Shown piece after piece: positions 21,258-39,292 of a stretch of DNA of 64,000 bases. Location: the NCBI GenBank assembly GCA_024421085.1, contig JAHQYN010000001.1, positions 5,009 to 69,008 of the forward strand, given 5' to 3'. The position numbers and the translations under genes are program-made. The number at the start of each line of letters is the position of its first letter. Positions within the stretch are counted from its first letter, which is position 1. The stretch comes from Acidimicrobiia bacterium (lineage in GTDB: Bacteria > Actinomycetota > Acidimicrobiia > Acidimicrobiales > Aldehydirespiratoraceae). The notes under the pieces were generated by a model. The model saw only the letters and a list, made by a program, of their open reading frames with translations, was not told the DNA's origin and made no database searches.

Positions 21258-23002
21258 GACCTGAGGATCCGTTCTGCTCGGCTTCAGACGATGAGGGTCG
21301 CGACGATCCGTTCACCGAGCCGGACGGTTTCTTCTCGGCTTCAGACGATGAGGGTGGCGATGGCCGGTTCACCGAGCCGGACGGTTTCTTCTCGGCTTCA
21401 GACGATGAGGGTGGCGACGACCGGTTCTCCGAGCCGGACGGTTTCTTCTCGGTTTCAGACGATGAGGGTGGCGATGGCCGGTTCTCCGAGCCGGACGGTT
21501 TCTTCTCGGCTTCAGACGATGAGGGTGGCGATGACCGGTTCTCCGAGCCGGACGCTTTTGACCCCGACGTGTGCAGTCGGAGCGGCGCGGGCCGAGCCGC
21601 TGGGTCCTTTGCACACGGTCGACGGGTCGATCGGAGGTTGGTTGATCTGAGGCTGTTGGTCGCGGGCGCGGCGCTGGTCGCGGCCGTTGTCGCCGCTGGT
21701 GTCGTCGCATCGCTGAGCAACGGCGGCGAGGTGTCAACAACTCCCGACGCTTCCCCGGTGCCTACAGCGGTGCCCTCAACGGTGCCTCCCACGACGCTTG
21801 GGGGGCCCGCAGAACCGGCGCCGACCAGCATCGCCGCGAACGGGGCCGACGCACCCCGAGTGCCGGACCCGGCACCGGACGCACCGGACGCGCTGCTTGG
21901 ATGCGACGACCGGAGCGGCGACGATCCTCATGGTCTGGTCAGGGTCGACGAGATCACCGAGCGGCTCAGTTTCTGTGGTGAGGAGACCTGGCAAGTGTTC
22001 GTTTGCAGTGCGCGGGAATCGGACCGAGCAGATCGGGTCGCCTATGTTGATGACGTATTGGGGGAGGCGGCCGAGTGGTTCGAGTGGGCCAGCGCCGGCC
22101 AATACGACATCGACTTCTCCGCCGGAGACGACACCAGGGCGGTGTCCGGCGGCACCGCCGGCCCGCAGGAGTGTTTCGAGGAGGTTCTGCAAAATCAGTG
22201 GAGTGAATCGCGCAGCGGAGCGCTGGTCCTCGTCGATGAGGCCGCGCTCGATCCGCTGGGGGGATGGGCCGGAGTCGGCACCTGCGGATACATAGGCTCC
22301 ACAAGCGCCCGCGAGTTCGGCGAGAGTGGCAGGATGGTCGCCATCGCGGTGCATGCACGAGGTGACCAGAGTGCGATTGCGGTACACGAGCTGGGGCATG
22401 CCCAATGTTGGCCGCACTCGTACTCCGGTGAGACCGGCTCGGAGTACGACAATCCCGCAGACGTCTTGTCCTCAGGCCAGAACTGGCCCGTGGGAACGAT
22501 TGCGGTGAACCGCTATGCGTCGGGCTGGATACACCCCGACGCAGTCCGCGTCCATCGCAGCTCCACCGGTGCCTACACGCTGTCGCCATGCTGCAGCGGG
22601 GGAGTGCAGATGCTTGCCCTCCTCCCACAAGAAGCGTCCGAGCAGCCAGTTGATTTCAACCGGCGATGGTGGCACCTCGAAGTGCGCGACCCCCAAGACG
22701 ACTGGGAACGGGGTCTCGCAGACACTGAGGTCGGGACACAACTCGGGGTCTCGGTCCACTGGATCGACCAGAGCGTCGGGTTGGGCCCCGAACGGCGCCA
22801 GGCTCAAGTCGGCAATCAGGCCGGCTTTGAGTTCGGCGTTCCTGTGCGTTTCGGTCGATTGAGGGCCGTCGGCAGCGAGTTCTGCCTGCATTCCGACCAA
22901 CCGAGGGCGTTGCTCGACTGCAGCAGTGCTCACCACTGGCGGGTCGAGGTGAGTGCTTCGCAGGCCGGGGGCCTGAGCCTCACGCTGACTCCAGGCTCGT
23001 AA
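21254..23002 (+). CDS. Membrane-anchored zinc metalloprotease-like protein (metzincin-type HExxHxxxxxH spacing) with a cytosolic acidic 19-aa repeat tail
   Basis: The TTG start overlaps the upstream stop (TTGA at 21254-21257). It has five 19-aa repeats (DPFTEPDGFFSASDDEGGD-like), a TM helix LLVAGAALVAAVVAAGVVASL, and then AIAVHELGHAQCWPHSY. Confidence 0.65.
   Translation: MRPEDPFCSASDDEGRDDPFTEPDGFFSASDDEGGDGRFTEPDGFFSASDDEGGDDRFSEPDGFFSVSDDEGGDGRFSEPDGFFSASDDEGGDDRFSEPDAFDPDVCSRSGAGRAAGSFAHGRRVDRRLVDLRLLVAGAALVAAVVAAGVVASLSNGGEVSTTPDASPVPTAVPSTVPPTTLGGPAEPAPTSIAANGADAPRVPDPAPDAPDALLGCDDRSGDDPHGLVRVDEITERLSFCGEETWQVFVCSARESDRADRVAYVDDVLGEAAEWFEWASAGQYDIDFSAGDDTRAVSGGTAGPQECFEEVLQNQWSESRSGALVLVDEAALDPLGGWAGVGTCGYIGSTSAREFGESGRMVAIAVHARGDQSAIAVHELGHAQCWPHSYSGETGSEYDNPADVLSSGQNWPVGTIAVNRYASGWIHPDAVRVHRSSTGAYTLSPCCSGGVQMLALLPQEASEQPVDFNRRWWHLEVRDPQDDWERGLADTEVGTQLGVSVHWIDQSVGLGPERRQAQVGNQAGFEFGVPVRFGRLRAVGSEFCLHSDQPRALLDCSSAHHWRVEVSASQAGGLSLTLTPGS
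21266..21565. repeat. 57-bp tandem repeat, about 5 copies, in frame within the 5' end of the protease gene
   Basis: Unit starts are at 21305, 21362, 21419, 21476 and 21533, plus a truncated first unit at 21266. The differences are mostly D/G and T/S codon changes. Confidence 0.9.
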
Positions 23003-23011
23003 CCGTCGTCG

Positions 23012-23110
23012 TTGTGGCCGTGCCGGACTGCTCGGAGTGCCAACGTTCGCCGGGGTCGTAGTGATCCATGTCCTGCTTTGTGGCCGTGCCGGACTGCTCG
23101 GAGTGCCAAC
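23012..23110. repeat. Two perfect 33-bp direct repeats (ttgtggccgtgccggactgctcggagtgccaac) spaced 66 bp start to start, between the operon end and the thioesterase gene
   Basis: Copies at 23012-23044 and 23078-23110, read directly. Confidence 0.9.
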
Positions 23111-23139
23111 TGCAGCGAACCGACGCTACGGTCACCCGA

Positions 23140-23853
23140 ATGCCTGAAGGCCAACAAGGCATCCTGGAGCCTGTTCAACTCAATGGGGCGCTGCGCGAGT
23201 TGATAGAGGTGGTCCGCACCGCCGACCTCGACGGGGTGGACCTCACCGCTGCGATCGCTCGGGTCCGCGCGCTGCGCGACGATCTCGCGCCGTTGGTCGT
23301 GCCGGGAATCCGGATGCAGTCCTGTCTGGTCTTTGACGACGCGGCCGTAGAGCAGGCCCAAGGCGGGGCCGACGGGCCAGCACCACCCGCAGAGCCCAGG
23401 TCAGAAAACCCTTCGGAGTTCTTCCCCTACAGCCCGCTGGTCGGCCCGCTGAACCCGGTCTCGCCGCCCGCGACGATGAGAAGGGTCGCCGTCGACGACC
23501 GTTTCGAGATCCACGGGGAGGCGACTTTCACGTCAGCCTTCAACGGGCCGCCGGACTGCGTCCATGGGGGAGTGGTCGCGGCCCTGTTCGACGAGCTCCT
23601 AGGGTGTGCCTGCGTCGTCAACGGCATCGGCGGCTACACCGGCACGCTGACCGTCGTCTATCGCACACCGACACCTCTGGGCACTGCGCTGACGCTGCGG
23701 GGCTGGGTCGACCGCCGCGAACGCCGCAAAGTGTTCGCTGCGGGCACGATCCACTCCGGTGACACGCTGTGCGCACAGGCCGAAGGGATCTTCGTGCAGT
23801 CCGAGAACCTTCGCAACCCGACCGATCAGCCGGGGTTGACGACGACTTCGTAA
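23140..23853 (+). CDS. PaaI/hotdog-fold thioesterase-like protein
   Basis: ORF 23068-23853. The ATG at 23140 is preferred because it lies downstream of the repeat pair. It carries the CVHGGVVAALFDELLG motif typical of PaaI-type thioesterases. Confidence 0.6.
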   Translation: MPEGQQGILEPVQLNGALRELIEVVRTADLDGVDLTAAIARVRALRDDLAPLVVPGIRMQSCLVFDDAAVEQAQGGADGPAPPAEPRSENPSEFFPYSPLVGPLNPVSPPATMRRVAVDDRFEIHGEATFTSAFNGPPDCVHGGVVAALFDELLGCACVVNGIGGYTGTLTVVYRTPTPLGTALTLRGWVDRRERRKVFAAGTIHSGDTLCAQAEGIFVQSENLRNPTDQPGLTTTS

Positions 23854-24782
23854 CCGGGCTGTTCGGGTTCCTCGTCGATCAACTCGGGCGGGAATCCGGG
23901 AGCGCGGAAATCGGATCCGGCAGCTTCCTCAGAGCGCTGCACGACCCGCGGGCTCAGTGCACGGGGCCCGTACCTTGCGGCTGCATCGTCGAACATCGCC
24001 GCTACGACGGGCGCTACCTCGAGCGCCAGGTCGGCACGCTCGGCTAGGCCCAGGAACAGGCTCATGTCCTTTTGCACCAGATCAAGGGTGAAGCCGATGT
24101 CGTAGGAACCGTTCAAGATCACCTGACCCTCGGTCTCGTGCACGAACGAAGTGCCCGAGGAGATGCGGATCGCCTCATACGTGGTGGCAAGGTCGATTCC
24201 CGACTGCTGTGCTGCCGCGAAGGCCTCACCGATCGACGCCAGGTTGACCGAGGCGAGATAGTTGGTCACGACCTTGAGGATCGAGGCCGACCCCAGCGGA
24301 CCCGTATGGAGGATCTTCCGGCCCATCATCGCCAGAATCGGCAGCGCCAGATCGAACGCTTCCCTGGAACCGCCACAGAAGATCGAGATGTTCCCCGTAG
24401 CAGCACGATGGCAGCCCCCCGACACCGGGCACTCGACCGGGGTGGCCCGGCGTGCTTCAGCGAGACCCGCAAGACGGCGGACCTCGGCGGAGTCGGTGGT
24501 CGACATCTCCAACCAGAGCTTGCCCTCGCCGAGCCCCGCGAGCACTCCGTCGTCTGCCTCCATGACCTCGGCGCAGACTGTCGGCGACGGCAGGCAGGTG
24601 ATCACCGCGTCGCAGCGTTCGGCGAGTTCTTTGGGCGACGAGGCTCGGCTCGCGCCGCGGTCGGTGAAGGACCGCACCACGGCCTCGTCGAGGTCGCGCA
24701 CCACGAGGTCGACTCCGTTGCGCAAGAGGCTTCCGGCGAGCTTGCTGCCGAGGTTGCCCAGTCCTGCAAATCCGATCCTCAT
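23826..24782 (-). CDS. NAD(P)-dependent 3-hydroxyisobutyrate/6-phosphogluconate dehydrogenase-family oxidoreductase
   Basis: 318 aa. The N-terminal MRIGFAGLGNLGSKLA is a GxGxxG Rossmann motif, and the beta-hydroxyacid dehydrogenase pattern appears downstream. Confidence 0.8.
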   Translation of the reverse strand: MRIGFAGLGNLGSKLAGSLLRNGVDLVVRDLDEAVVRSFTDRGASRASSPKELAERCDAVITCLPSPTVCAEVMEADDGVLAGLGEGKLWLEMSTTDSAEVRRLAGLAEARRATPVECPVSGGCHRAATGNISIFCGGSREAFDLALPILAMMGRKILHTGPLGSASILKVVTNYLASVNLASIGEAFAAAQQSGIDLATTYEAIRISSGTSFVHETEGQVILNGSYDIGFTLDLVQKDMSLFLGLAERADLALEVAPVVAAMFDDAAARYGPRALSPRVVQRSEEAAGSDFRAPGFPPELIDEEPEQPGYEVVVNPG

Positions 24783-24934
24783 GATGCACTCCGTTCGCGG
24801 CTGGGCGCGTCAACGTGGGCAGGTCCACGCTAGCTTACGCCGAAACCCACAACAGTTGGTGGTTGAAGAGACGATGTTGACCACCTTGACTGAATGTGTT
24901 GCATTATTGGTGGTCTGATCCGTACGATGGTCAT

Positions 24935-25597
24935 ATGCCTACCGCCACCTCCCAATCACGGGCATGGCTCGACGATCTGCCCGGCGGTGAGTTCTTCTTC
25001 GCATCGGAGGTGCCCGGACGGTCCAGCGTCGTGCGTCCGCTGCTCAGCCGGCTGTCAGCAGACGAGAGGAGCCCGATCCACCGCGAGATGCAAGGTTTCT
25101 ATTCGAAACTGTGGCACGAGGCCGACGAGCCGCGAGTGCCGTACGCGGATCGCGTCTACGGATCGTTGAAGCTCGCCGGCCCGGGTGGTGGTGGTGCATC
25201 AGGTTTTGCCCTCAACTGGCTCGGCTGGACGCTCCAGCATCCCTGCAGGTACGACTTCGCCGTTGTGGGGCGGCCCCCGACGTCGCCATGGAAGTTCGCT
25301 CGCTTCCATCGTCGCAGCAATAAGTCTCGACTTGGATTGTCTTGGGCCGAAGTGACGCTCGTCGAAGCGGTCCGTGCGTTCGGAATTCTGGAGTGCCTTC
25401 CATGGGATGCCGCAATGGACATGCTGCGCTCGGGTGTGTCGCAGCATCGGCTCGGCGTCGGCGCTGTCCTCCGCCAAGATGCCCTGCTGGCGGCAGCGGC
25501 CGATGAGCGTTCGCAGCCGCGAGAATTTCATGTGAGGCTCGGTGATGCAGTTCAAGCGCTTCCCGGGCCAGTTGCCATTGCGTCCTCGGCGGCATGA
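24935..25597 (+). CDS. abiEi: AbiEi-like antitoxin (type IV toxin-antitoxin)
   Basis: The winged-helix-like N-terminus FFFASEVPGRSSVVRPLLSRLSADERSPIHREMQGFY resembles AbiEi. The stop overlaps the ATG of the nucleotidyltransferase gene (ATGA at 25594-25597). Confidence 0.55.
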   Translation: MPTATSQSRAWLDDLPGGEFFFASEVPGRSSVVRPLLSRLSADERSPIHREMQGFYSKLWHEADEPRVPYADRVYGSLKLAGPGGGGASGFALNWLGWTLQHPCRYDFAVVGRPPTSPWKFARFHRRSNKSRLGLSWAEVTLVEAVRAFGILECLPWDAAMDMLRSGVSQHRLGVGAVLRQDALLAAAADERSQPREFHVRLGDAVQALPGPVAIASSAA

Positions 25598-26751
25598 GCC
25601 GTCGACGCGCGCTGTGCGGTTCTAACGACACGTCGAGCGGCAAGCCTTGCAAGAACCTCAAGGATGCGTGCCCGCACGCTGGCCATCGCCGTGCTGAGGA
25701 CGGTGGGCGCACGTTGCCGGCAGGACGCGCCGCTCTCGAGTCGGCTACAGATGATGCTCGGCACCGAGAACGTGCCGCTGCTCGCCGAGCATTGACCCCG
25801 CCGACCGCGGGTTCGGGTCCGGCGGCAGACCGGGCAACGTTCAGCGCGGCCGTCCGTTCCGCCGCGGATGCTCTCGGCTTGCCCGAACGACAGGTCGTCC
25901 ACGACTATTGGCTTGTCCGTGCTTTGCATGGATTGCGGAAAGTTCTGCCCGAAGACGGCGAAGTTCTGGTGCCGGCTCAAAAGGCGAGGCATTCTGATCG
26001 CCGGGTAGGCCGCTGGGCGTTCGGTGGCGGCACATCTCTGACTGCGGCGTGGCGTGTGGCGGAGCGCTATTCCGAAGACATCGACGGGAACCTGTTTGCG
26101 GACGAGCAGATGTCACCGAGTGCGTTCGCTGCTGTTCATCGGCGTATCAGCAACGCGATGTGCGAAGCCGTCGAGGCAAACGACCACAAGACACTCGGAC
26201 GCAATGTGAGAACCACCACAGTCGACCTGGAGGGCCACCCGGGGTTCTTGAGGGTGGAGACCGCGCTGCAAGGATCTGATGACGGCCTTGTGGTGGCTCA
26301 GGAGGTGAACTCGCTCATCGCCGTTCACTCCGGCATGGATCTCACAGGCAAGTACTCGGAGGTTGGAGGGTTCCGTATTCCGTGCGTGCGTCCCGAATGG
26401 ACGGCGGTCAACAAGTTCGACGCGATGCACCGACGATCTGTTGCTGGTGATCTCGAAGGTCTGGTCGACAGAGGTCGTGACCTGTACGACCTGTGGGCAC
26501 TCGCGGGCTCCGAGCACGCGACCGTGATTCGCCAACGGACATCAGAGTTGTGGGAACGAGCGACGAGTGGGATGCGCACACCGGTGCCGCGGCCCGATGG
26601 CGGATACGGGCAGAGTCCTGCTCTCGAGTTCGGCTCAGCTGCCAACGACGCCCTCAGGGAGGGCTTCGGGAACGCAATCGCGTTGACGGTCTGGGGCCAA
26701 GCTCCCGCATTCGAGGAAGCCGTTGAGTCTGCGAGGTTGCTCGACCGCTAG
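25594..26751 (+). CDS. abiEii: AbiEii/AbiGii-family nucleotidyltransferase toxin
   Basis: WAFGGGTSLTAAWRVAERYSEDIDGNLF matches the GGTxL...RxSEDID core of AbiEii. The N-terminal ~90 aa is Arg-rich and poorly supported. Confidence 0.7.
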   Translation: MSRRRALCGSNDTSSGKPCKNLKDACPHAGHRRAEDGGRTLPAGRAALESATDDARHRERAAARRALTPPTAGSGPAADRATFSAAVRSAADALGLPERQVVHDYWLVRALHGLRKVLPEDGEVLVPAQKARHSDRRVGRWAFGGGTSLTAAWRVAERYSEDIDGNLFADEQMSPSAFAAVHRRISNAMCEAVEANDHKTLGRNVRTTTVDLEGHPGFLRVETALQGSDDGLVVAQEVNSLIAVHSGMDLTGKYSEVGGFRIPCVRPEWTAVNKFDAMHRRSVAGDLEGLVDRGRDLYDLWALAGSEHATVIRQRTSELWERATSGMRTPVPRPDGGYGQSPALEFGSAANDALREGFGNAIALTVWGQAPAFEEAVESARLLDR

Positions 26752-26829
26752 ACGCTGCCGGTCAGCCGGGTGCCTTTTCGCGACTCGAAGCATTGAAGCC
26801 CGCCCCCCTTCAATCGACCGCTCCGGGTT

Positions 26830-27381
26830 TCAGTTGTGTCGAGGATCGTGGGGGTAGTGCGCCAAATGGCGAATCGAGGACCGCTGGCGGGCGCACACTT
26901 CCCACCAGAGCTCCCCCGGGTTGGCGGTGCGGACATCGTCGGGTTCGGCGTCGACGACGAACCAGCTGCCGGTGACCAGTTCGGCCTCGAGTTGGCCTCC
27001 GGTCCAACCTGCGTAACCGGCGAACATCCTCACGCCGCCCAGTCCAGGCACCTGCTCGGGAGGCACTTCAAGGTCGACCGTCCCGATGCTGCCCAGAATC
27101 TGATTCCAGCGCTCGCCGGCTGTGGCGAGATCGAACGATGCCAGGGCGATGACCGAGGAGGGCGAGACGGGACCACCGAGGAACACGACTGCGGGTTCGG
27201 TCGCCTGTTCGGACCAACCCTCGATGGCTGTGGAGACGGGCAGTTCGCTCGGCCGGTTCAGGACCACCCCGATCGCCCCCTCCTCGTTGTGCTCGAGAAT
27301 GAACACGACAGACCGGTAGAAGTTGCGGTCAACAAGTGTCGGTGCCGCCACCAGCAGTCGTCCTCGGGTCGAATCGTGCAT
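26830..27381 (-). CDS. YqgE/AlgH-family protein (UPF0301)
   Basis: 183 aa. GRLLVAAPTLVDRNFYRSVVFILEHNEEGAIGVVLNRPS is the family signature. Confidence 0.8.
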   Translation of the reverse strand: MHDSTRGRLLVAAPTLVDRNFYRSVVFILEHNEEGAIGVVLNRPSELPVSTAIEGWSEQATEPAVVFLGGPVSPSSVIALASFDLATAGERWNQILGSIGTVDLEVPPEQVPGLGGVRMFAGYAGWTGGQLEAELVTGSWFVVDAEPDDVRTANPGELWWEVCARQRSSIRHLAHYPHDPRHN

Positions 27382-27468
27382 CGCCCCCAGTCTCGCGTGA
27401 TCCAGCGGCGTCTGTCACCCGCAAACGACGTTCATTGCGCGCTTGCGCGTTTGTCAGACGCTCGGCAT

Positions 27469-28167
27469 CTAGGGGGTGTCGGACCAGTCCTCGCCGTAGT
27501 CGAAGAGCAGTTCCTCGCCGGGGCTGACATCGCGCAGTGCATAGAGGTCCGGTCCATCGAATACGACGTTGGGGGAGCGGCTGTGGTTCAAGAAGCGCAG
27601 GTCGCCGGTGCCGTCGATCCCTTCCCATGAGCCGTCGTCACCCTCCACCCACAAGACATATCTTCCGTTGATTTTGGTGGGAGCGCCGGTATAGCGGCCA
27701 ATCAGGGAGTCCTGTCCAAGTTCCACCAGAGCGAACACACCGGTCCCGTGAACTGGTGACGGTCTGAGCTCCACGAGCCCACGGTCATCGGGTTGGATCG
27801 ACATGACCTCGGCCCGCTCGCCGACTGTGGGCGCGGGTCGGTACCTGCTGTCGGTGATCAGCGAGTGGGTGACGGCGCGCTGCGCTAGGTCCTCGAGCTC
27901 CTCGCGAAGCGGGTCTCGCAACCAGCCGTCCACCGAGGCGCCGTCTGGAAACGAGACGACCAGAACTGCGTCGGGGACCGCGGACTCTACGTCTGTGTCG
28001 GCGATCCTGCGTTCGAGGATTCCGCTGGTACGCGGCAGGAGTCCGATCAGCGCGCCGATGTACTCCTCGAAGGCTTCTGTGTCGCCACGGCTCCGGAGTC
28101 GCAGGGTCAGCTCGATGCGTCCGTCTTTGTCCACTTGTCGCACAATACTCAAGGGCCGCATCCCCAA
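27469..28167 (-). CDS. SET-domain protein (putative protein lysine methyltransferase) with an ~110-aa N-terminal domain of unknown function
   Basis: The C-terminal half has VHGTGVFA (GxG), RFLNHSRSPN (NHS) and GEELLFDYG (ELxFDY). Confidence 0.75.
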   Translation of the reverse strand: MGMRPLSIVRQVDKDGRIELTLRLRSRGDTEAFEEYIGALIGLLPRTSGILERRIADTDVESAVPDAVLVVSFPDGASVDGWLRDPLREELEDLAQRAVTHSLITDSRYRPAPTVGERAEVMSIQPDDRGLVELRPSPVHGTGVFALVELGQDSLIGRYTGAPTKINGRYVLWVEGDDGSWEGIDGTGDLRFLNHSRSPNVVFDGPDLYALRDVSPGEELLFDYGEDWSDTP

Positions 28168-28453
28168 TCGATTGGCACTCGGCGAGCGGTATTCCGCAGA
28201 GATAGCGCGTCAACTTTACATAACGATGATTTCCGGCGGTCAAGCCGAAAAGAACCGCCGCTTTCCTCGGGCAGTCGGCCACCTGTGCGGCGGTTGCACG
28301 GGTCTGCCATACCTCCGCACGCAACACATCCTCAGAAGACACCACGACACAAGGCCGACGTGCAACCAACCACCCACCGCCACCGGCCGTTGGACAATAC
28401 GGTTGGGCAGGGATCGATGCCGCGGCGAGTGCCAGCCCGTCTTTTGAAAGTGG

Positions 28454-30492
28454 TTGATAGCGAACTGGCCGATACGGTTCTTGGGCGTGGCTCGAAGGCT
28501 GGAAATCGAACTGACCTCAAATCGCTCCGACGGCAAGTGGACTTGGCGTGCCGCAGGCGCGAAGCAACCGAAGGGAACTCTCGACGGTTCGCTGCTCCCA
28601 GAAGGGACCGAGGTCGGCGATGTCTTGAAGGTGGAGGCCGACGCGACTCTCGATGGACTCGAGATCACCGCTGTGCTTCCCACCCGGTCTCCGAGAGCTG
28701 AAGTTGAGATACTGCCGCTGCTCGGTTCGGGTCGAAAGCAGCCGCTGGTCACTTCACAACTGGCACCCAAGATCCGCTCCCGGGCACGCGGCGCCGACAG
28801 GGATCGGCCCGGCACCGCGCCAACCCGCCGCAAACGCGCAGACCGCGGCGAACGGCGCAGAAACGACGACAACCGAACTTCAAGATCCGCCACGAAACAG
28901 GATCGCCGCCGCCCCGGCGAGGATGCCCGCTCCCGTGATCAGAAGCGGGCCGACCGCCCCGAGGGCCGCCCCAAGACCCGCGACAAAAACCGTGGCGGTA
29001 CCGACAAGGGGGCCTCGCGGGACCAGCAAGGCAAGCGAAACAGTCGGGCCAGCTCCCAGAGGCGGCCGAAACCACGCTCTACGCCTAGGGCTCACCGCCT
29101 TCGTCCCCGCACCAATAACCGTCGTGCCGCTCTCGCAAAATTGCCGGAGATCCAACATCCGCTCGCCGAGGAGGTTATCAAGGGAGGTGTCCCCGGTCTG
29201 CGCAAGACGATCGACCGGATGAACAAGATGGCTCAGGCCGAAGGTATCCCCAAGGTCTCCTCGGAACCGCTGGTTGCCTTGGCAGAGAAGCTGACACCTG
29301 ATTTGAACGCAGCTCTCTGGCGCGACCGGGCTGAAGCCGCCATCGCGGGAATCGACAAGGTCGACCTGCGCGACATCCGCAGCGTGGTTGTGGCCGCTGA
29401 CAGCGGTGCTCGCGACGAAGAGTCCCGTGAACTTGCAGAGCAACTGCGCGAGGGACTGTCGGCCCGGGTCGAGAACGAGCATCGATCCTGGCTCAACGAG
29501 ATCGCCGAGCATCTCGCCGATGGGCGGACAGTGCGTGCTCTGCGGCTCAGCAGTCACCCCCCGAAGGCCGGGGCCCCGCTGCCCTTCGACGTGGCGGATC
29601 GCCTGACCAGTGCGGCCTCGGAATCGTTGAGCAGTGACATCGCTCCCCAGCGCTGGGCGACGGTATTGGACGCAGTGGCCTTCTCCCCTGTCCGCTCCCA
29701 GGTGACTCCCCAGGGCTGCCCCCCCAATCCCAATGAGCAGTTGCTCACCACCGTGCGCAGGTTGGCTTCGAAAGTCCCCGACATTGCAGCCTTGTTCGGG
29801 ATAACGCCCTCGGGCCCCCCAAAACGCTCAGCGACGAAGCGGCGACCCACACCCCCTCCCCCGCCGACCCCGCCCCCCCCGCGCCCCCCCAAACCCGCTC
29901 AGCGCCGAAGCGGCGCCCCCCCCCCCCCCCCCCGCCGCCCCCGCCCCCCGCCGAGCCCGTGGCGGCCGACTTGGCGACCGCTGAACCAGCGGCCGCAGAG
30001 TCTCCAGTTGACCCCGTGGCCGAGGAGCCTTCGGTTGAACCCGTCGCCGCTGGATCCGTGACCGCTGAACCGGCGGCCGCAGAGTCTCCGGTTGACCCCG
30101 TGGCCGAGGAGCCTCCGGTTGATCCCGTGGCCGAGCAGCCGGTGGCCGCAGAGCCTTCGGTTGACTCCGTGACCGCTGAACCGGTGGCCGAGGAGCCTGC
30201 GGTTGATCCCGTGGCCGAGCAGCCGGTGGCCGTAGAGTCTCCGGTTGATCCCGGGGCCGAGGAGCCCGTGGCCGCAGAGCCTGTGGTGGTGCCGGTGGCC
30301 GTAGAGTCTCCGGTTGATCCCGTGGCCGAGCAGCCGGTGGCCGCAGAGCCTGTGGTGGTGCCGGTGGCCGTAGAGTCTCCGGTTGATCCCGGGGCCGAGG
30401 AGCCCGTGGCCGATGAGGTGGCGGTCGAGGAGGGACCCACTCCCCCGCCACCGTCCGCAGGCCTCGACCCGACCGAAAGGGTCGACAAATGA
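28454..30492 (+). CDS. Hypothetical protein with basic, helical, Pro-rich and acidic-repeat regions; the reading frame is broken at an 18-nt poly-C tract (frameshifted gene or two genes)
   Basis: Frame A (28454-30061) enters the poly-C and then gives low-quality sequence. Frame B is open through the tract, encodes PVDPVAEEP-type repeats, and ends in an ATGA overlap with the next gene at 30489-30492. One extra C, or two fewer, would fuse the frames. Confidence 0.45.
29916..29933 (+). repeat. Homopolymeric C tract, 18 nt (with additional C8 and C7 runs at 29873-29880 and 29884-29890)
   Basis: Counted directly from the sequence lines. Confidence 0.95.
29977..30425. repeat. Nested in-frame tandem repeats (84-bp period at 29977/30061; 69-bp period at 30223/30292/30361) encoding acidic PVDPVAE(E/Q)P repeats
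   Basis: Read directly. All periods are multiples of 3 in frame B. Confidence 0.85.
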
Positions 30493-31250
30493 TCGAGTTC
30501 GACATCGAGGGCCGAATCGCGGTCATCAGACTTGATCGGGTGGAGGCTCGCAACGCCATCAACCCGGCGATGGCCCAAGCAATCGAATCGGCGATCGACC
30601 GCCTCGAGGAGGATGACGACCTGTGGATCGGGATACTCGCCCACAACGGGCCGGTGTTCTGCGCGGGAGCCGATCTCAAGGAGATAGCCGCCGGCAACGG
30701 CGCGGGTCTGGGAACGAAGCGTGGAGGGTTCGGAGGGATAGTCATGCGCGAGCGGACCAAGCCTCTCATCGCCGCGGTCAACGGGCATGCTGTCGCCGGC
30801 GGCACTGAGATCGTCCTGTCCTGTGATCTGGTTGTCGCTTCAACCATCGCCAAGTTCGGGATACCGGAGGTGAAGCGCTCGCTGGTCGCAGCCGCGGGCG
30901 GTCTGGTGCGGCTGCCCCGAGTGCTCCCCCCCAACATCGCCATGGAGCTCGCGATAACGGGCGACACGCTCAGTGCCGAACGGGCGCACCACTTCGGTCT
31001 GGTGAACGAACTGTGTCCCCCGGGCGAAGTCGTCGCCACCGCCTCCGCACTCGCTGAACGGGTCGCCGCCAATGCTCCGATAGCGGTCCGTGAGAGTCGT
31101 CGCCTGATCCTCGAAGCCCCGACCCAGACTGACTCCGAAGGGATCGTCGAAGGCGGCAGGACGATCGCCGCGCTGGCTTCGACGGAGGACTTCGCGGAAG
31201 GCCCCAGGGCCTTCATCGAGAAGCGTCCCCCGGTCTGGAAGGGCCGCTGA
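30489..31250 (+). CDS. Enoyl-CoA hydratase/isomerase (crotonase family)
   Basis: 253 aa. It has FCAGADLKE and AAVNGHAVAGGTEIVLSCDLVVAS. Confidence 0.85.
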   Translation: MIEFDIEGRIAVIRLDRVEARNAINPAMAQAIESAIDRLEEDDDLWIGILAHNGPVFCAGADLKEIAAGNGAGLGTKRGGFGGIVMRERTKPLIAAVNGHAVAGGTEIVLSCDLVVASTIAKFGIPEVKRSLVAAAGGLVRLPRVLPPNIAMELAITGDTLSAERAHHFGLVNELCPPGEVVATASALAERVAANAPIAVRESRRLILEAPTQTDSEGIVEGGRTIAALASTEDFAEGPRAFIEKRPPVWKGR

Positions 31251-31312
31251 CAAACCCGTCTGCCAACGGCACCGCTGGCCACCGGCAGCGCTGCCGATGC
31301 CGCTGCCCGCCG

Positions 31313-31786
31313 TCAGTCCTGCAGTGATCGATGGACCCGCAGGGCGCGGGCGGTGAGGCCGAACGTCTCAAAGAAGTTCTTCGTCTCCCGGTCCCCGGGA
31401 AGGGCGATCGAGTCGATGCCGATGCAGCCCTGCTCGGTGCACCAGCCCTCCACGAGCCCCAGCAGCGCCTCACCGCATCCCACACCGCGGGCGTCGGGGG
31501 CGACGTAGATGTCAGTGACTTGGCCGAGGACGCTGCCATCGTGCAGTTCAACGAGATCAACCCCTGCGTAACCGACGGTCGTGCCGTCGATGCAGACGAC
31601 CGCGAGCAGTCCTGCATCCATCGTTTCGCGCAGGCTGGCATCCAAGGGTTCAGCACGGGCTTCGCGTTGGGACCAGACCGCGCCGCCGCGTCGAGGACGC
31701 AGCTCATCAATCGCTTCAGCGCACAACCGGGTGACTTCCCCCAGATCAGCCACCCCAGCCGGGCGTGCGTTGATTTCCACGGTCAC
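31313..31786 (-). CDS. GNAT-family N-acetyltransferase
   Basis: 157 aa. The acetyl-CoA binding-like segment YVAPDARGVGCGEALL (RGxGxG-like) is present. Confidence 0.7.
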   Translation of the reverse strand: MTVEINARPAGVADLGEVTRLCAEAIDELRPRRGGAVWSQREARAEPLDASLRETMDAGLLAVVCIDGTTVGYAGVDLVELHDGSVLGQVTDIYVAPDARGVGCGEALLGLVEGWCTEQGCIGIDSIALPGDRETKNFFETFGLTARALRVHRSLQD

Positions 31787-32207
31787 TCTCTCAAAGAACT
31801 GTTGGCAGCAAGCAGTTGCTTGATCCGGTTGGTGACGGTCTGGCGGTTCCGGTGGGTCTTCTCGTAGGCGAGAATCTCGGTGAGCTGAGCCTCAGACAGC
31901 GCTTCGAGTTTCGCCAAAAGCTGCGGCGCCGAGAAGGAGCCGTAGTCCTCGATCGGCAAGGAAGCGGCGTCCCCGTTCGGTCCACCCTGGTCGTCGTGGG
32001 CATCGTGGTCGTCGGGTTCATCGGCTAGCTCGTGATCAGTTGCCCGACGCTGACTCTCGGCGACCTTGCGGGCAAGTCGGGCGAGTGCTACCTGACCGCG
32101 TCCGCGGTCGGCCAGCTTGGGGATCAGGTCGCGGGCCTCCAACAGCAGGCCGATCGGCGCATAGACGAGCAGGTCGAGCAGTTGCTCGCCGAGGTTCGCC
32201 TCGTCGT

Positions 32208-32861
<654 letters not shown>

Positions 32862-32875
32862 CCTCGGGGAACGGA

Positions 32876-34495
32876 TTAACCCAGATCGCGTTCTCGGCGG
32901 CGCTTCTCCGCACGCTGTTCTGCAGAGAGGCGTCCCAAGGCCGTGTCGGTTGAATGGTCCACGAAGCGCATGGCCTCGGCCAGCGCGATATGGCCCGCCT
33001 TCTCGGCGATCTGGGTGTGCATTCGCTGGCAGATTCGACGGTACGCCTCATGTCCCTGCGGCGTGGTGCGCAACTCGAGCATGTGCATGGCCTCGCGGGC
33101 GTTGAACTGCATCGAGTAGCGGATCCGGTAGGCCAAGGCCACCGCGTAGCGGGCGCTGTCGCGATGGTCCGCGGCGAGTGCGTTGTAGAGCGACGCAGAA
33201 CGCGCCATCGCCGAGCGGTAGTCCTCGGAGACGCCAGCGGCATCGACCGCGTCCGGAACTGCGTATCCGTGGCGGGGCGACAGCGGCTGCCAGTCGATGG
33301 TGAGCATCCGATGACGCTGCAGGTCCCTGAAAGCGCCGTAGTCCGACAGGACGTCGAAGCGGTACCCGGTCCGCTCGAAGGCTCGACCGGGGCGGTGGCG
33401 GCGATTGCTGCGGTAGCCGACATAGGCCTTGATCACGTCGATCCGCTCCTCCACCGACATCTGCTGCACCCGGGCCTCGATCATCCGCTCGGAGAGCGAG
33501 GTGTGGGGATAGAGGCAGGCGGTCACGACCTTCAGTTCACCCTCGGGGTCGAAATCGACCAGGTCGACTACGTCGTCGTCGACCACTCCCCCGGTCTCGT
33601 AGCCGAATATCCGATCGCTGACCGCCTCCATGGAGTCACGGGCGTCGGTCAAGTAGCTCGTTGCCCGCACCCCGCGATCGGGCAGATCAACACGCTTGAG
33701 AAACGAGGGGATCACCTTGCGCAGTTCGGTCAGCATCAGTTCCGCGTAGGCACGTGACTCCGGCAACGGGTGGCTTCTCATTCGCAGCAGCAGGGCCTCG
33801 TATGCCTGTCCGGTGCCGTATATCCCGACATTGGACAGCGAAGCGGCCGGCAGCATGCCGCGGACCGCGTCGAGCGCACGGGCCTTGACGGCGATCCGGT
33901 AGGCGAAATCGCTGTCACCGTCTTTCTTCGGGACGACCTCGCGAAAGAAGGTCTGCATCTGCGGGATCAGTTGCGAGTAGCCCTCGAAGATCCGGTCCAT
34001 GTCTGCCACATAGCGCGTGCCGAGCGGAGAACTCATGATCTGGGGATCGCGGTAGTAGCGGTAACGCCCCCCCAATCGTTGGTCATAGGCGATGTAGCGG
34101 GTGCTCTGCTCGAGGTAGGCCATCAGGCGGCCCCATTCGAGGATCTTGGTCAAGACGTTGGAGGCCTGCTCGCAGGCGAGGTGGACGCCGCCGAGCTGGG
34201 CCACACTGTCGTCGCCGTACTCGAAGAAGACCCGGTCGTAGAGCTCTTCGGCGCGGCGCAACCCCACGGTTGCGTCGATCGTCTGGTCGCCCTCGATGTC
34301 GAGGTCTCCGACGAACTCCTGGAGGAACAACCGCCGCAGGCTCAGCGGTGAACGGGAGTACCTGGCAAAGAGCGCTCCCTTCACGACTTCGGGAAGGTTG
34401 ACCAACGCGAACACGGGCTGGTCGAGGTTCGTGAAATAGCGGCGGAGGACATCGGCCTCGTCGGCGGTGAAGTCCTCGGCGGTGTAGACCGTCAT
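32876..34495 (-). CDS. ThyX-like (flavin-dependent thymidylate synthase family) protein, long form
   Basis: ORF 32876-34564. The Met at 34495 (MTVYTAEDF) avoids overlap with the M20 gene. It has the ThyX-type RHR motif (FRDLQRHRMLT). Confidence 0.6.
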   Translation of the reverse strand: MTVYTAEDFTADEADVLRRYFTNLDQPVFALVNLPEVVKGALFARYSRSPLSLRRLFLQEFVGDLDIEGDQTIDATVGLRRAEELYDRVFFEYGDDSVAQLGGVHLACEQASNVLTKILEWGRLMAYLEQSTRYIAYDQRLGGRYRYYRDPQIMSSPLGTRYVADMDRIFEGYSQLIPQMQTFFREVVPKKDGDSDFAYRIAVKARALDAVRGMLPAASLSNVGIYGTGQAYEALLLRMRSHPLPESRAYAELMLTELRKVIPSFLKRVDLPDRGVRATSYLTDARDSMEAVSDRIFGYETGGVVDDDVVDLVDFDPEGELKVVTACLYPHTSLSERMIEARVQQMSVEERIDVIKAYVGYRSNRRHRPGRAFERTGYRFDVLSDYGAFRDLQRHRMLTIDWQPLSPRHGYAVPDAVDAAGVSEDYRSAMARSASLYNALAADHRDSARYAVALAYRIRYSMQFNAREAMHMLELRTTPQGHEAYRRICQRMHTQIAEKAGHIALAEAMRFVDHSTDTALGRLSAEQRAEKRRRERDLG

Positions 34496-34506
34496 TCGTG
34501 CGGAGC

Positions 34507-35682
34507 TTATTCGCTCGGCTTGAACGAGCCGCGGATGGCGGGCAACGCCTCGGGGTCGCCCCAACAGTCGACGATGGTCATCGCCATGTTTATTGCACCG
34601 TCGATGACTGCTCGGTCCGCCGCGTCGGAACGCGCGTGGACGGCGAACTCCGGCGTGTGGATCGCAACACCCTCGGGTGCCACCTTGATCATCGGATGGA
34701 TCGAGGGAACCGCGTGGCTGACGTTGCCCATGTCGGTGCTGCCGACGACGATTCGTTTGTCGTCCTGGGGGTCGACGACCCGGCCGTTGGCTGCTGAGTT
34801 GTTGACGTAGAGATCGAGCAGCGGCTCGCTGTCAACCATGTTGTAGAAGGGCGGGTCCTTCCAGACACTGTGCATCTCGCAGCCCGCCGCAGTCGCCCCG
34901 GCCTCGAGGCAGGCACTGAAACGCGCCTTGAGGCGTTCGAGGCTGTCGACATCGCCGGAGCGCACGTACCACTGGGCTGCCGCAGCGGACGGGACGATAT
35001 TGGGTTTCGTGCCGGCCTCGGTGAAGATGCCGTGGATGCGCTCGTCGGGTGCGATGTGCTGGCGGAGCGCCGCGACCGCGTTGTAGCCGAGCACGGCTGC
35101 GTCGAGCGCGTTGCGCCCCAGATGCGGGGCGGCGGCTGCGTGGGACGCTCTCCCGGCATAGCTGACGTCGACGGTGTGGACCGCGATCACCTCCATCTTG
35201 TTGATGTCGTGGTCTGCCGGGTGGACCATCATGGCCGCGTCGACGTCGTCGAAGGCGCCCTTGCGGATCATGAACTCCTTGCCTCCGCCGCCCTCCTCGG
35301 CCGGTGTGCCGAGAATGGCGACACGTCCGCCCAGCGCTTCGGCCACAGTGGCCGCCGCGAGTCCGGCGCCGAGCCCCGCAGCGGCGATCACATTGTGGCC
35401 GCAGGCGTGACCGATCCCGGGGAGTGCGTCGTACTCGCAGCACACCGCGATGGTCGGGCCCGAGGTTCCGACTCGGGCATCGAACGCAGTCGACATGTCG
35501 TATGCCCCGCGGTCAACTGGCAGTCCCTCGCTTTCGATGGCATCGGTCAGGACCTCGTGGGCGTGATGCTCCTCGAACCCGAGCTCCGGGTTTGCATGCA
35601 GCGAGTGCGAGATCTCCAGCAGCTTCGGAGTCAGACGCTCAACTTCGGCTCGGACCGACTTCTTCGCCTCGATGACGTCCAT
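34507..35682 (-). CDS. M20-family amidohydrolase/peptidase (M20D-like)
   Basis: 391 aa. It has HACGHNVIAAAGLGAG and GTPAEEGGGGKEFM. Confidence 0.8.
   Translation of the reverse strand: MDVIEAKKSVRAEVERLTPKLLEISHSLHANPELGFEEHHAHEVLTDAIESEGLPVDRGAYDMSTAFDARVGTSGPTIAVCCEYDALPGIGHACGHNVIAAAGLGAGLAAATVAEALGGRVAILGTPAEEGGGGKEFMIRKGAFDDVDAAMMVHPADHDINKMEVIAVHTVDVSYAGRASHAAAAPHLGRNALDAAVLGYNAVAALRQHIAPDERIHGIFTEAGTKPNIVPSAAAAQWYVRSGDVDSLERLKARFSACLEAGATAAGCEMHSVWKDPPFYNMVDSEPLLDLYVNNSAANGRVVDPQDDKRIVVGSTDMGNVSHAVPSIHPMIKVAPEGVAIHTPEFAVHARSDAADRAVIDGAINMAMTIVDCWGDPEALPAIRGSFKPSE
35245..35547. repeat. Left copy of a 303-bp direct repeat (partner 38031-38333, about 98% identical) bracketing the m5C R-M island
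   Basis: Hand alignment finds about 7 mismatches over 303 bp. This left copy lies inside the intact M20 gene (about codons 45-146). Confidence 0.9.
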
Positions 35683-35719
35683 CCGCCGATTCTAGGACCA
35701 CGCTGTCGGTGCCGGGTGT

Positions 35720-36586
35720 TCAGGCCGGAGAAATCTGTGGATGACCGGCGCGGCCGCAGAGTTCGTCTTCCAAGTGCGCCCATGCGTCTTCGCCGAGGTA
35801 GGCACTGCCACCGTGCTGACGAAATGTCCTTGCGAGTTCGGACAACTTGGAGTTTTCGGTTCCGTCGAGCACTAGGAGCACGGGTGTGAATCCACTAGCT
35901 TTGCAGTCGGCGGGAAAAGAGAGTTCCTCTCCCCAGCGGCCTTGGCCCGACGCGGCGATAGTAACACGAATCTTGATTTCGTATGCCTCTCCACCGCGTA
36001 AACAGTCCACTTGACGGCCCCGACCTGTGCCGCCTCTTCGGACAGGGCTAGAAGCAGCCGGTATCGGCGATCCTCCGATAGCGCCAGCCATGATGGGCTC
36101 GAACAGATATCCTGTTTCCTGCGCAGCTCGATTATCGATGTCGTACATCCACTTGCGCAAGATCAGGAGCGCACCGAGCGCTTCGGCGCTCAAATCACCG
36201 TATTGAAGCAGTCCTCGCGGTCCGACTTGCTCCAGCGAGGGGGTCGCTTGAAAGCGGAGTATATTGGCGAACTTGAGTCGTGCGCGGTGAAGAACTGCGA
36301 GCGACAAGAAATACATGTCGGTGTCAGGCAGGCCGATTTGAACCAGAGCCTCGTACGCATCGAGTCCAGCGGTTTCACCTTCAAGTGACAGTTCGTGTGG
36401 TGCGAACTCGTAGAACTCTCTCGAGTCCATCGTGCCGAGTCCAGTGAGCGACGGCAAGCTGAGATCCCGGACGGTGACAGCTACGAGGGCTCGCACCACG
36501 CTGTCAGTCAACGAGACCGCTTGGCCTCCCGCACCCGTGGCCCGAGCTTTCTCGAACGCCGCGGACTGCGGTTTGTTCAGCACCAC
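35720..36586 (-). CDS. Putative Type II restriction endonuclease (PD-(D/E)xK-like), partner of the adjacent m5C methyltransferase
   Basis: 288 aa. It overlaps the methyltransferase gene by 10 nt. The candidate catalytic motif is QVDCLRGGEAYEIKIR (D-x9-E-x-K). GC is lower, about 57-58% by hand count. Confidence 0.5.
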   Translation of the reverse strand: MVLNKPQSAAFEKARATGAGGQAVSLTDSVVRALVAVTVRDLSLPSLTGLGTMDSREFYEFAPHELSLEGETAGLDAYEALVQIGLPDTDMYFLSLAVLHRARLKFANILRFQATPSLEQVGPRGLLQYGDLSAEALGALLILRKWMYDIDNRAAQETGYLFEPIMAGAIGGSPIPAASSPVRRGGTGRGRQVDCLRGGEAYEIKIRVTIAASGQGRWGEELSFPADCKASGFTPVLLVLDGTENSKLSELARTFRQHGGSAYLGEDAWAHLEDELCGRAGHPQISPA

Positions 36587-37815: not shown

Positions 37816-38030
37816 GGCATCACTGACCAGTGCAGTTGCATCGTCAAATCATAGCGGACAGCAGTCAGATCATTAGGGAATACAGCATCTTCGCGTTTGA
37901 GGATGTCTGGTATGACAGTGACGGCAACTTCAGCTGTCCGCTTCGTGTCGATATCTGGAGCAAGACTCTGGCTGGACGCGAGGGAGCTGTGATTCACGAC
38001 GGCCAAGCCAAACCGCCTGGGTCACTGGAT

Positions 38031-38333: not shown

Positions 38334-38469
38334 GTAGGTCACGGCACTGTCGCACCCACCGTGTAAGCTGAGCATTACCTGCATCAACACTGTCAGGGTC
38401 CCGAGAATCGGGGGCAAGCTCTATCGGTGGTTGCGACAGAGTGTAGCGTAGATGTGTTGTGCGGGGTTC

Positions 38470-39100: not shown

Positions 39101-39264
39101 TCCGCACCCGACCCGCCCCGGACAACCGCATCCCACCGACCCCGAGACGTGTCAAGCCTTCGGAATTGTTGGAGTTGCGTTCGTCGGTCGTGTGTCGTAG
39201 CGTGCCGGTGGCCGCGGCTGCGGTCTTTGTTCGCTGGAGGAGCTGTCTTGAACTTTCACATCAA

Positions 39265-39279: not shown

Positions 39280-39292
39280 GCTGAAGCGTTTT

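Follow-up and report, generated by a model that had tools for sequence, protein, structure and literature searches.

The frame break that coincides with an 18-nt poly-C tract in the window (by which we mean the whole stretch of 64,000 nucleotides analysed here) is very probably an artefact of assembly, in which two overlapping sequence ends, one of them error-laden, were abutted; we infer this from comparison between assemblies and not from reads. With 71 nt taken out, the locus is in all likelihood one gene of 644 codons, running from GTG 28487 to TGA 30492, and its break an assembly error.

The poly-C tract and the two reading frames

What the first-pass annotation had described at the level of sequence is indeed present in the window. 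The poly-C tract is C18 at exactly 29916–29933; the ORF from 28454 encodes 535 aa, crosses the tract and stops at 30061, and the acidic frame is open from 29737, C18 included, to a TGA at 30490–30492 that forms an ATGA overlap with the enoyl-CoA hydratase ATG at 30489. The repeats of the acidic frame have the periods reported, 84 nt at 29976–30133 (93% matches) and 69 nt at 30070–30412; Tandem Repeats Finder also detects periods of 27 and 42 nt, and every period is a multiple of 3. As had been calculated, one additional C or two fewer would fuse the frames, so that C16, C19 or C22 joins both, and the fused product of about 680 aa holds if translation starts at TTG 28454, as the earlier reader had assumed. 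The product is 667–669 aa if started at GTG 28487, which JGI annotated as the start of P0001, the same-strain protein, and which fits the ARRLEIELT N-terminus of most orthologues.

Only three homopolymers of at least 8 nt are found in the 64 kb (63.9% GC), namely C8 at 29873, the C18 and C15 at 39265, and none is found in about 330 kb around the orthologous loci of 16 related genomes. The length of the C18 is far beyond chance, and in this assembly a homopolymer of slippage length does lie inside an ORF.

A 71-nt tandem duplication at the break

The C18 sits within copy 2 of a 71-nt duplication, which the earlier reader missed. The features of the duplicated region are as follows:

29815..29958, + strand: tandem duplication with a period of 71 nt, 2.0 copies and 86% matches (Tandem Repeats Finder; pairwise alignment of copies)
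29879..29949, + strand: redundant 71-nt block, a C-enriched copy of the preceding sequence (deletion restores contig L001; absent from contigs L018, L019 and L020)
29916..29933, + strand: C18 tract, which in copy 2 corresponds to the 18-nt ACCCACACCCCCTCCCCC, four bases (A, A, A, T) being C instead (comparison with copy 1 and L001)

The region of the block is low-complexity and roughly 80% G+C; alignment of copy 1 with copy 2 gives z = 12.4 against shuffles. Placement of the block is equivalent for any 71 nt starting at 29868–29879. The copies differ at 8 positions over the 71 nt (seven substitutions plus one extra C in copy 2), whereas the first 31,801 nt of the comparison elsewhere contain none (Fisher p = 4e-22), and all seven substitutions are from A or T to C (p = 4.6e-4, uniform null). 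The differences are thus clustered and directional and preserve length, which is an error-like signature. As the tract and its counterpart are both 18 nt long, base substitution in register is indicated and not slippage.

Copy 1 shares its frame with what lies upstream of it, copy 2 with what lies downstream. In the acidic frame copy 2 reads TRSAPKRRPPPPPPPPPPPAEPVA, the genuine counterpart being KRSATKRRPTPPPPPTPPPAEPVA, and the sequence of the copy-1/copy-2 junction is GACCCCGCCCCCCCCGCGCCCCCCCAAACCCGCTCAGCGCC. The way in which copy 2 runs on, in register and in the right frame, into the downstream sequence is what would be expected of an un-merged overlap. The frame is broken because of the 71-nt redundancy (71 mod 3 = 2) and not because of a homopolymer miscount. 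As given, the window has GACCCCGCCCCCCCCGCGCCCCCCCAAACCCG plus C18 at the block; most likely, the block is not part of the genome.

Comparison with other assemblies of the organism

The organism is an Acidimicrobiia sponge symbiont, and the strain is from Aplysina aerophoba. We compared the window with Illumina contigs of the A. aerophoba symbiont from JGI, NCBI and ENA and found 0 substitutions in about 49 kb (1–11096, 18487–29878, 29939–39279 and 39265–56816), with the proviso that some of the ‘independent’ assemblies may stem from one specimen’s reads. The sole discrepancy with the matched contigs is the 71-nt block. Against L001 there are 0 mismatches over 18487–29878, and 29939–39279 is identical; once the block is deleted, the sequence agrees with L001 at every base over 20,722 nt and has one ORF of 644 aa. 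The extra block, which copies the sequence adjoining it, is thus peculiar to one assembly, the genome being otherwise identical: there is no duplication at the site in L001/L019, L018 or L020, all of which read GACCCACACCCCCTCCCCCGCCG. The intact gene (644 or 621 aa) is present on five contigs of the species, two from JGI, one from an NCBI MAG (GCA_026713045.1) and two from ENA.

Illumina-only assemblies of the strain cross the 29.9-kb site without trouble. These assemblies run straight through here, yet break at the genuine C tract, which argues that there is no C18 at this site. The lesion, which in a genuine pseudogene should recur in independent sequence of the lineage, was not found in any other contig of the strain, nor were there further signs of decay, the gene outside the block being 0 nt different from the intact copy in L001. 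A C tract at this site, of the kind that phase variation would maintain in isolates, was found neither in the other assemblies nor in 16 orthologues. Exact look-ups of the window’s broken ORFs (177 aa and 524 aa) found none on record, and the same look-up for ORF 51221–52588 returned no record. JGI metagenome_contigs gave 0 matches both for a degenerate pattern allowing any tract of 10–30 nt and for a plain 50-mer; that collection does not contain this strain. A scan of genome_contigs returned other species only, at no more than 86%.

The probable intact gene and its protein

The putative single gene, its protein domains and its downstream neighbour are laid out as follows:

28487..29878, + strand: 5' part of the gene in the copy-1 frame, from the GTG start as for P0001 to the last base shared with independent contigs (L001 identity; P0001 and orthologues start V/M-ARRLEIELT)
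28487..28678, + strand: N-terminal five-stranded beta domain, residues 1–64, cold-shock/OB-like (AlphaFold pLDDT 80–88; Foldseek)
28688..29065, + strand: disordered basic linker, Arg/Lys/Asp-rich, residues 68–193 (pLDDT below 50)
29084..29806, + strand: conserved all-helical domain, residues 200–440 (pLDDT above 90; most invariant columns of alignment A1)
29852..29866, + strand: genuine PPPPP motif, CCC CCT CCC CCG CCG (conservation in alignment A1)
29950..30492, + strand: 3' part of the gene in the copy-2 frame, AEPVAADL..., acidic PVDPVAEEP-type repeats and stop (L001 identity over 29939–39279)
29976..30412, + strand: tandem repeats of 27, 42, 69 and 84 nt, all in frame, that code for the disordered acidic tail (Tandem Repeats Finder)
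30489..31250, + strand: enoyl-CoA hydratase gene, its start overlapping the real gene’s stop (ATGA; Pfam ECH_1, E = 3.7e-47)

In the intact protein, TPPPAEPVAADLATAEPAAAESPVDPVAEEPSVEPVAAGSVTAEPAAAESPVDPVAEEPPVDPVAEQ-type sequence would be joined to the core; the frameshifted product would end ...PWRPTWRPLNQRPQSLQLTPWPR. The protein is cytoplasmic-looking. Pfam gave only a sub-threshold match to DUF6898, and NCBIfam nothing. The N-terminal 64 residues, a predicted five-stranded beta-barrel, superpose on CspA (2l15, TM 0.70) and the YBX1 cold-shock domain (CSD; TM about 0.6), at a Foldseek probability of about 1.0 and an E-value of at least 0.07, which is not significant. The Arg-rich disordered region that follows the OB-like domain is also a feature of Y-box proteins; searches of the linker against PDB sequences returned only low-complexity matches to RG-rich tails. 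In contrast to CspA and the YBX1 CSD, the N-terminus matches neither Pfam CSD nor any NCBIfam model at the level of sequence, and nothing in those proteins corresponds to the helical domain of 240 residues, to the PPPPP motif or to the acidic tail. For the helical domain we found no Pfam, NCBIfam, PDB-sequence or significant Foldseek-PDB match.

As judged by full-length similarity and synteny with the enoyl-CoA hydratase (ECH) gene, the window’s gene belongs to an unnamed conserved Acidimicrobiia family with an OB-like domain, a helical domain, PPPPP and an acidic tail. The family yields 2,950 matches at E <= 1e-3, the top one 99% identical and the orthologues at 54–86%. The gene order gene, ECH, GNAT, Thy1, M20 is kept in 16 loci, and the overlap of the enoyl-CoA hydratase ATG with the upstream stop recurs in nearly all of them. 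In each of the 16 orthologues from related species the gene is one ORF, its CCCCCTCCCCC motif is interrupted, and homopolymers of 8 nt or longer are absent. The conserved motif reads RR..PPPPP, and across the family P457–P460 are invariant and P456 nearly so (alignment A1), and in most orthologues the PPPPP motif is encoded by the interrupted CCCCCTCCCCC(G/A)CC. Orthologues have acidic tails of anything from near 0 to about 250 aa, and in some of them, such as P0019 (468 aa) and P0035 (429 aa), the tail is dispensable. Its repeats are genuinely polymorphic between strains, the 99% strain (P0122/L020) lacking 23 aa (69 nt).

A second long C tract at 39265

The C15 at 39265 is real, and every short-read contig of the organism ends or starts in the run. 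The length at this site reads C15, C17, C18 or C23 in different assemblies. The run, C15 or longer, occupies codons 7–11, ahead of the signal peptide, in the gene for a 2,039-aa SLH/RCC1 surface protein. Long poly-C/G contingency loci lie at the 5' ends of surface-protein genes in Campylobacter, Neisseria and Haemophilus, and the Bordetella fim promoter carries a poly-C tract. It is the 39265 tract that resembles these classical loci and not the C18, which differs in lying in the disordered C-terminal part of an OB-fold protein and is probably not real. The 39265 tract is a much better candidate than the C18 for real homopolymer-mediated switching, in this case of a giant surface protein.

Alternative explanations of the frame break

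Among the readings that the first-pass annotation had put forward, sequencing error lies closest to the evidence, but the fault lies in an entire surplus block of 71 nt and not in a homopolymer miscounted by one base. We rejected the one-base miscount: the tract has the length of its parental sequence, and a +1 C repair gives a non-native protein, C19 yielding 668 aa with a 24-residue insertion, PRPPKPAQRRSGAPPPPPPPPPPP, that is found in no orthologue. No ‘ON’ length of the tract produced the native protein; 644 aa are recovered only by removing 71 nt. A variant that retains the miscount assumes a real in-frame duplication of 72 nt, undercounted by one base, so that the true tract would be C19 and the gene an intact one of 668 aa with a 24-codon insertion. 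The uninterrupted 668-aa ORF that C19 gives is indeed P0001 but for one 24-aa insertion, and long homopolymers are routinely miscounted (PMC3334598), as at the C15 site with its C15, C17, C18 and C23. Given the directional 10% divergence of the copies in an otherwise identical clone, the absence of the duplication from all other assemblies, and an inserted peptide that loses the very motif it duplicates, copy 2 having its own internal indel, we consider this variant very improbable. 

The genuine pseudogene and the slipped-strand switch fare poorly, the tract being absent from five contigs of the species and from 16 orthologues. A genuine strain-specific lesion would be a real 71-nt tandem duplication, arising by slippage between flanking C6–C8 runs and frameshifting the gene to give a recent pseudogene or truncation allele. 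Short C runs do flank the block and could mediate a microhomology duplication, and the 524-aa product would keep all folded domains and lose the acidic tail, a truncation that might be tolerated since P0019 and P0035 manage without the tail. The source assembly is, moreover, otherwise very accurate (no substitution over about 49 kb), and the lesion would gain in likelihood had it been made from HiFi reads, for which a 71-nt insertion carrying 7 substitutions would be an unusual error. However, a recent duplication in an otherwise identical clone should be exact, and here there are 8 differences, all towards C; together with the absence of the block from the five other contigs and the in-register, in-frame passage of copy 2 into the downstream sequence that an un-merged overlap would give, this makes the lesion improbable. 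A slipped-strand ON/OFF switch would have a real and hypermutable C18 toggle, by +1 or −2 C, between a tail-less product of 524 aa and one of about 668 aa. While a homopolymer tract of 18 would be extremely slippage-prone, a continuous frame is restored by C16, C19 or C22, and the genome has one genuine long C tract at 39265, the other assemblies of the strain and 16 related species have no tract here, and the ‘ON’ product would have a 24-aa insertion unknown in orthologues and a scrambled version of the conserved KRxxxKRR motif. The tract also has the length of the parental interrupted sequence, and the 71-nt block alone explains the frameshift; such a switch is very improbable. The precedent that had been invoked for it, Mycobacterium tuberculosis glpK, undergoes homopolymer phase variation at a 7C tract (PMC6667613; bioRxiv 10.1101/717272; PMC10334774). 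The likeness lies in a coding-region C run, in a high-G+C actinobacterium, in which a change of ±1 would switch the frame. The analogy rests on a mycobacterial context, whereas here the organism is an Acidimicrobiia sponge symbiont; the glpK tract occurs in every isolate and differs in length among them, whereas here no other assembly and no orthologue has the tract and the shift comes from a 71-nt block and not from tract length. It is also very unlikely that the block is a genuine allele, formed by duplication and subsequent C-biased error-prone resynthesis, with a hypermutable C18 switching the acidic tail on and off; if this were true, then, taken together with the real 39265 tract, it would mean that long poly-C tracts serve as contingency loci in an uncultivated sponge symbiont.

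A possible origin of the block in assembly

Under the preferred reading, an assembly pseudo-duplication, the C-rich proline-coding stretch would have been represented by two sequence ends overlapping by about 71 nt, the left one correct and the right one error-laden over its first ~60 nt, where lone A or T within C-rich sequence would have been read as C and one or two C added. Because of these errors the overlap would have been missed and the ends joined head to tail, the outcome being a 71-nt pseudo-duplication, a frameshift and an apparent C18 in the second copy. The step responsible may be hybrid Illumina and PacBio assembly by SPAdes without read error correction. The contiguous public A. 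aerophoba assemblies were built from HiSeq and PacBio CLR reads together by SPAdes --only-assembler (PMC5649159; PMC9426513); a search of the literature on hybridSPAdes gap filling yielded nothing beyond a general description. A<->C is the commonest HiSeq/GA miscall and clusters regionally, strand-specifically and after G/C (PMC3334598), and the A/T-to-C errors of the copy are consistent with this class.

Pseudo-duplications from assembly or gap closure arise when overlapping contig or tip ends are joined head to tail and error-rich read tails are kept with correction switched off. The present case is alike in that the block duplicates its neighbour, is private and has each copy in frame with its own flank, and in that its errors, directional from A/T to C in a C-rich context, match the dominant Illumina A<->C class (PMC3334598). 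It differs in that Illumina-only assemblies cross the site, so the break would be specific to the graph of that one assembly. A related defect is seen at the end of contig L018, which continues from C17 through 44 nt of junk and G13 into its own upstream sequence in reverse complement (z = 26); this fold-back chimera shows that non-genomic sequence does enter contig ends at C-rich sites in this organism. We had also considered whether the junk at other contig ends represents degenerate copies of the true flank and dropped this as a strong argument, the signal being weak (z = 1.5 and 2.9); the precedent thus covers junk at contig ends and not degenerate copies.

Implications

A long homopolymer at a frame break mimics phase variation, and here sister assemblies show the tract to have been manufactured; screens for contingency loci in MAGs should demand that a tract be reproducible across assemblies. 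In annotation, 28487–30492 minus 71 nt should be taken for one intact gene, neither a pseudogene nor two ORFs. A by-product of the analysis is a domain description for a widespread, uncharacterised Acidimicrobiia protein: a cold-shock-like domain, a basic linker, a helical domain, a PPPPP motif and a variable acidic tail.

Anatomy of the frame break

The run of exactly 18 C at 29916-29933 (C18), which the first-pass annotation had tied to a frame break in a gene for a disordered protein, is present in the sequence as described. The upstream frame, open from a TTG at 28454, crosses C18 and stops at 30061 (535 aa), and the acidic frame is open from 29737 across C18 to a TGA at 30490-30492. Both repeat periods reported for the acidic region (84 and 69 nt) are given by Tandem Repeats Finder for 29976-30412, along with further periods of 27 and 42 nt. 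As had also been claimed, one C more or two fewer would fuse the frames: with C16, C19 or C22 in place of C18 there is one ORF, of 667-669 aa counted from GTG 28487. C18 is no chance event. Only three homopolymers of at least 8 occur in the 64-kb window (63.9% G+C), namely C8 at 29873, C18 and C15 at 39265, and none was found in the orthologous neighbourhoods of 16 related genomes (~330 kb).

Features around the break
29815-29958: 71-nt tandem duplication, 2.0 copies, 86% matches (TRF)
From the ATG overlapping TGA 30490-30492 as ATGA, the overlap noted at first pass: enoyl-CoA hydratase gene (Pfam ECH_1, E = 3.7e-47), its protein also deposited as MCQ3805693.1

C18 lies inside copy 2 of the 71-nt duplication. 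Aligned with copy 1, copy 2 shows seven substitutions, all A to C or T to C, plus an extra C. C18 is the copy-1 18-nt ACCCACACCCCCTCCCCC with three A and one T turned into C, so that its length is unchanged from that of its parent, and we reject a miscounted homopolymer: the frameshift arises because 71 mod 3 = 2, and the length of the C run plays no part in it. In the acidic frame copy 2 reads ...TRSAPKRRPPPPPPPPPPPAEPVAADL..., the genuine counterpart being ...KRSATKRRPTPPPPPTPPPAEPVAADL.... Copy 1 is in frame with all upstream sequence and copy 2 with all downstream sequence, and the window thus looks like two overlapping pieces laid end to end; the piece ending in copy 1 and the piece beginning with copy 2 would have been abutted rather than merged.

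Comparison with assemblies of the same and related strains

The top protein match (P0001, JGI) is 99% identical and a single ORF of 644 aa reading ...KRSATKRRPTPPPPPTPPPAEPVAADLATAEP.... Its contig, L001, shows zero substitutions against the window over 18487-29878 and 29939-39279, and deletion of 71 nt from any start at 29868-29879 (e.g. 29879-29949) yields exactly L001 over 20,722 nt; the window minus 71 nt at the duplication encodes a 644-aa protein. The 29.9-kb site is crossed in the same way by contigs L018 (NCBI MAG, GCA_026713045.1) and L020 (ENA MEGAHIT assembly of a ~99% identical strain), both of which lack the duplication and C18. By look-up, five contigs carry the intact protein (644 or 621 aa), and no database record was found for the window's broken ORF products. 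Identity is 100% to contigs L026 and L027 over window 1-11096 and to L028 and L029 over 39265-56816, and ~49 kb of the window shows no substitution against same-strain Illumina contigs. Between the 71-nt block and its parent copy 8 positions differ (Fisher p = 4e-22 against the first 31,801 nt compared), and 7/7 of its substitutions are to C (p = 4.6e-4, uniform null).

These comparisons make it very probable that the frame break is an assembly artefact, a 71-nt pseudo-duplication, and no real feature of the organism. Of the three readings offered at first pass, sequencing error came nearest, the error being a pseudo-duplication and not a miscounted homopolymer. A genuine pseudogene fails on reproducibility, given the intact protein on five contigs and the lack of duplication and C18 in L018 and L020; we consider a real truncation allele improbable. 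Less probable still is an in-frame duplication that is real but was undercounted by one base, for which the fused ORF might speak: adding one C gives a 668-aa product with a 24-residue insertion present in no relative and with the basic motif scrambled by copy 2's internal indel, and this repair does not stand. Least probable, by a small margin, is a real ON/OFF switch, suggested by analogy with the glpK C-tract of mycobacteria; it too fails on reproducibility, with no C18 at the site in L018 or L020.

The C tract at 39265 as a control

A second tract shows how such runs behave in the same assemblies.

39265-39279: C15 tract, codons 7-11 (PPPPP) of a 2,039-aa gene (39248-45367, + strand)

The gene starts at a TTG (39248) just before C15, with a GGAGGAG Shine-Dalgarno-like motif upstream and a signal-peptide-like segment after the tract, and encodes an SLH domain, 21 or more RCC1 repeats, a Calx-beta domain and a beta-solenoid. 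Left-side short-read contigs stop inside the tract (C18 in L001 and L019, C17 in L020) and right-side contigs begin inside it (C6 in L029, C3 in L030). The GCA_026713045.1 contig ends here hold non-genomic sequence: L018 (JAPOPG010000208.1, 18777-18919) ends in C17, 44 nt of junk, G13 and the reverse complement of its own upstream sequence, a fold-back chimera (z = 26), and L028 (JAPOPG010000117.1) starts with 79 nt of junk, then C23. The idea that this junk is the true flank in degraded form has weak support (z = 1.5 and 2.9), and we do not rely on it. All short-read contigs of the strain stop or start within this tract, which is therefore real, with a length of 15 or more and possibly 23 or more. 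A genuine long C tract here thus breaks short-read assemblies and has junk built into their ends. At 29.9 kb these assemblies run on without a break, which speaks against a C18 at that site in the populations behind them.

Proposed origin of the artefact

The Illumina-only contigs retrieved stop at two places, ~10.7-11.4 kb and the C tract at 39265, the former adjoining a 300-nt repeat pair (7770/11474) and a strain-variable region. The window bridges both stops and so belongs to an assembly that was built in another way and is more contiguous. In hybridSPAdes, long reads bridge dead ends in the short-read graph; where the tip of such an end is error-laden, the end could be linked in this way with its overlap unrecognised. 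Contiguous public A. aerophoba assemblies are hybrids (PMC5649159, PMC9426513). One used HiSeq2000 and PacBio RS II reads, pre-corrected with proovread, then SPAdes 3.5 with --sc --only-assembler, and includes Acidimicrobiia bin134 (64.3% G+C, N50 92 kb) (PMC5649159); the other used HiSeq PE100 and PacBio, then metaSPAdes 3.12 with --only-assembler (PMC9426513); read error correction was skipped in both. The commonest HiSeq/GA miscall is A<->C, miscalls cluster by region, by strand and behind G/C, and indels in homopolymers become ~1000-fold more frequent by length 15 (PMC3334598). Hybrid assembly, with miscalls leaving the overlap unrecognised, is a plausible origin of the artefact.

Other features in the window

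A 306-nt direct repeat, 97% identical (35242-35547 and 38028-38333), in which a portion of the M20 peptidase gene is duplicated, flanks genes for an ApaLI-like restriction enzyme and a DNA methylase (35720-37815, - strand). Neither this RM cassette nor the giant RCC1 gene occurs at any of the 16 related loci, where synteny otherwise runs to M20, and the region looks like an inserted island. Contig L025 (ENA ERZ27241788, ~99.6% identical strain) diverges completely from the window past 11368 (region ~11100-11400), inside or beside a large type IIG-like methylase/restriction gene (N6_Mtase/Eco57I), which points to strain-variable defence content. A 74-nt unit repeated ~2.6 times at 47516-47737 (first two copies 96% identical) overlaps the start of ORF 47617-48462 (+ strand); it is identical in independent Illumina contigs, and hence real. 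ORF 32208-32861 (- strand), conserved in same-strain contigs, is mostly Asp/Glu runs (DDDDEDD...) followed by a Cys-containing C-terminal motif, CPHC...CPHCGG, its opposite strand reading poly-Ser.

The intact gene and its family

Homologues of the N-terminal ORF number 2,950 (E <= 1e-3), none with a Pfam domain; all those with a source name are Acidimicrobiia or Actinomycetota. The family of window 28487-29806 (P0001-P0120) is large and uncharacterised. The nearest genomes are sponge-associated MAGs, among them several complete chromosomes that bear the label Candidatus Aldehydirespiratoraceae, and the SRA runs with 100% identical sequence are Aplysina aerophoba datasets; this rules out a mycobacterium, and by these matches the organism is a sponge symbiont.

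At 16/16 orthologous loci one uninterrupted ORF encodes the conserved core and the RR..PPPPP motif, the latter in most of them via an interrupted CCCCCTCCCCC(G/A)CC. The stop overlaps the hydratase start in nearly all, and the order gene, ECH, GNAT, Thy1, M20 is kept across all 16; the hydratase gene is always next after the family gene at the loci examined. In P0011 (ENA, 613 aa, a related species) the frame is lost directly after RRLTPPPP, giving ...RQRYLQQNQWLKSRLLGL... (-1 frame of PAVPPAKPVVEESSVGP), and is regained ~60 residues on. Other assemblies, too, seem to run into trouble repeatedly at the C-rich proline motif.

An AlphaFold model of the intact protein was built on an alignment of 56 sequences.

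Residues 1-64: five-stranded beta domain, pLDDT 80-88
Residues 68-193: disordered Arg/Lys-rich linker
Residues 200-440: all-helical domain, very confident (pLDDT above 90)
P456-P460: PPPPP motif, P457-P460 invariant and P456 nearly so in the alignment
After the PPPPP motif: acidic tail, disordered

The predicted N-terminal domain is alike in fold to cold-shock/OB domains, superposing on CspA (TM 0.70) and the YBX1 CSD (~0.6), with E-values that are not significant; a nucleic-acid-binding role is a reasonable guess from the model. No fold match was found for the helical domain, which is confidently predicted and would be novel.

Across the 16 loci the acidic repeat tail varies in length from next to none up to ~250 residues, with the frame kept throughout, and in the ~99% identical strain (P0122 on L020) it is without exactly one unit, 23 residues or 69 nt. 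The tail at 29976-30412 is thus genuinely polymorphic, and in-frame repeat variation is the gene's real variable feature, a case of genuine rapid repeat evolution of the disordered tail. The C tract at 39265, for its part, makes a giant surface protein a credible candidate for phase variation through a homopolymer.
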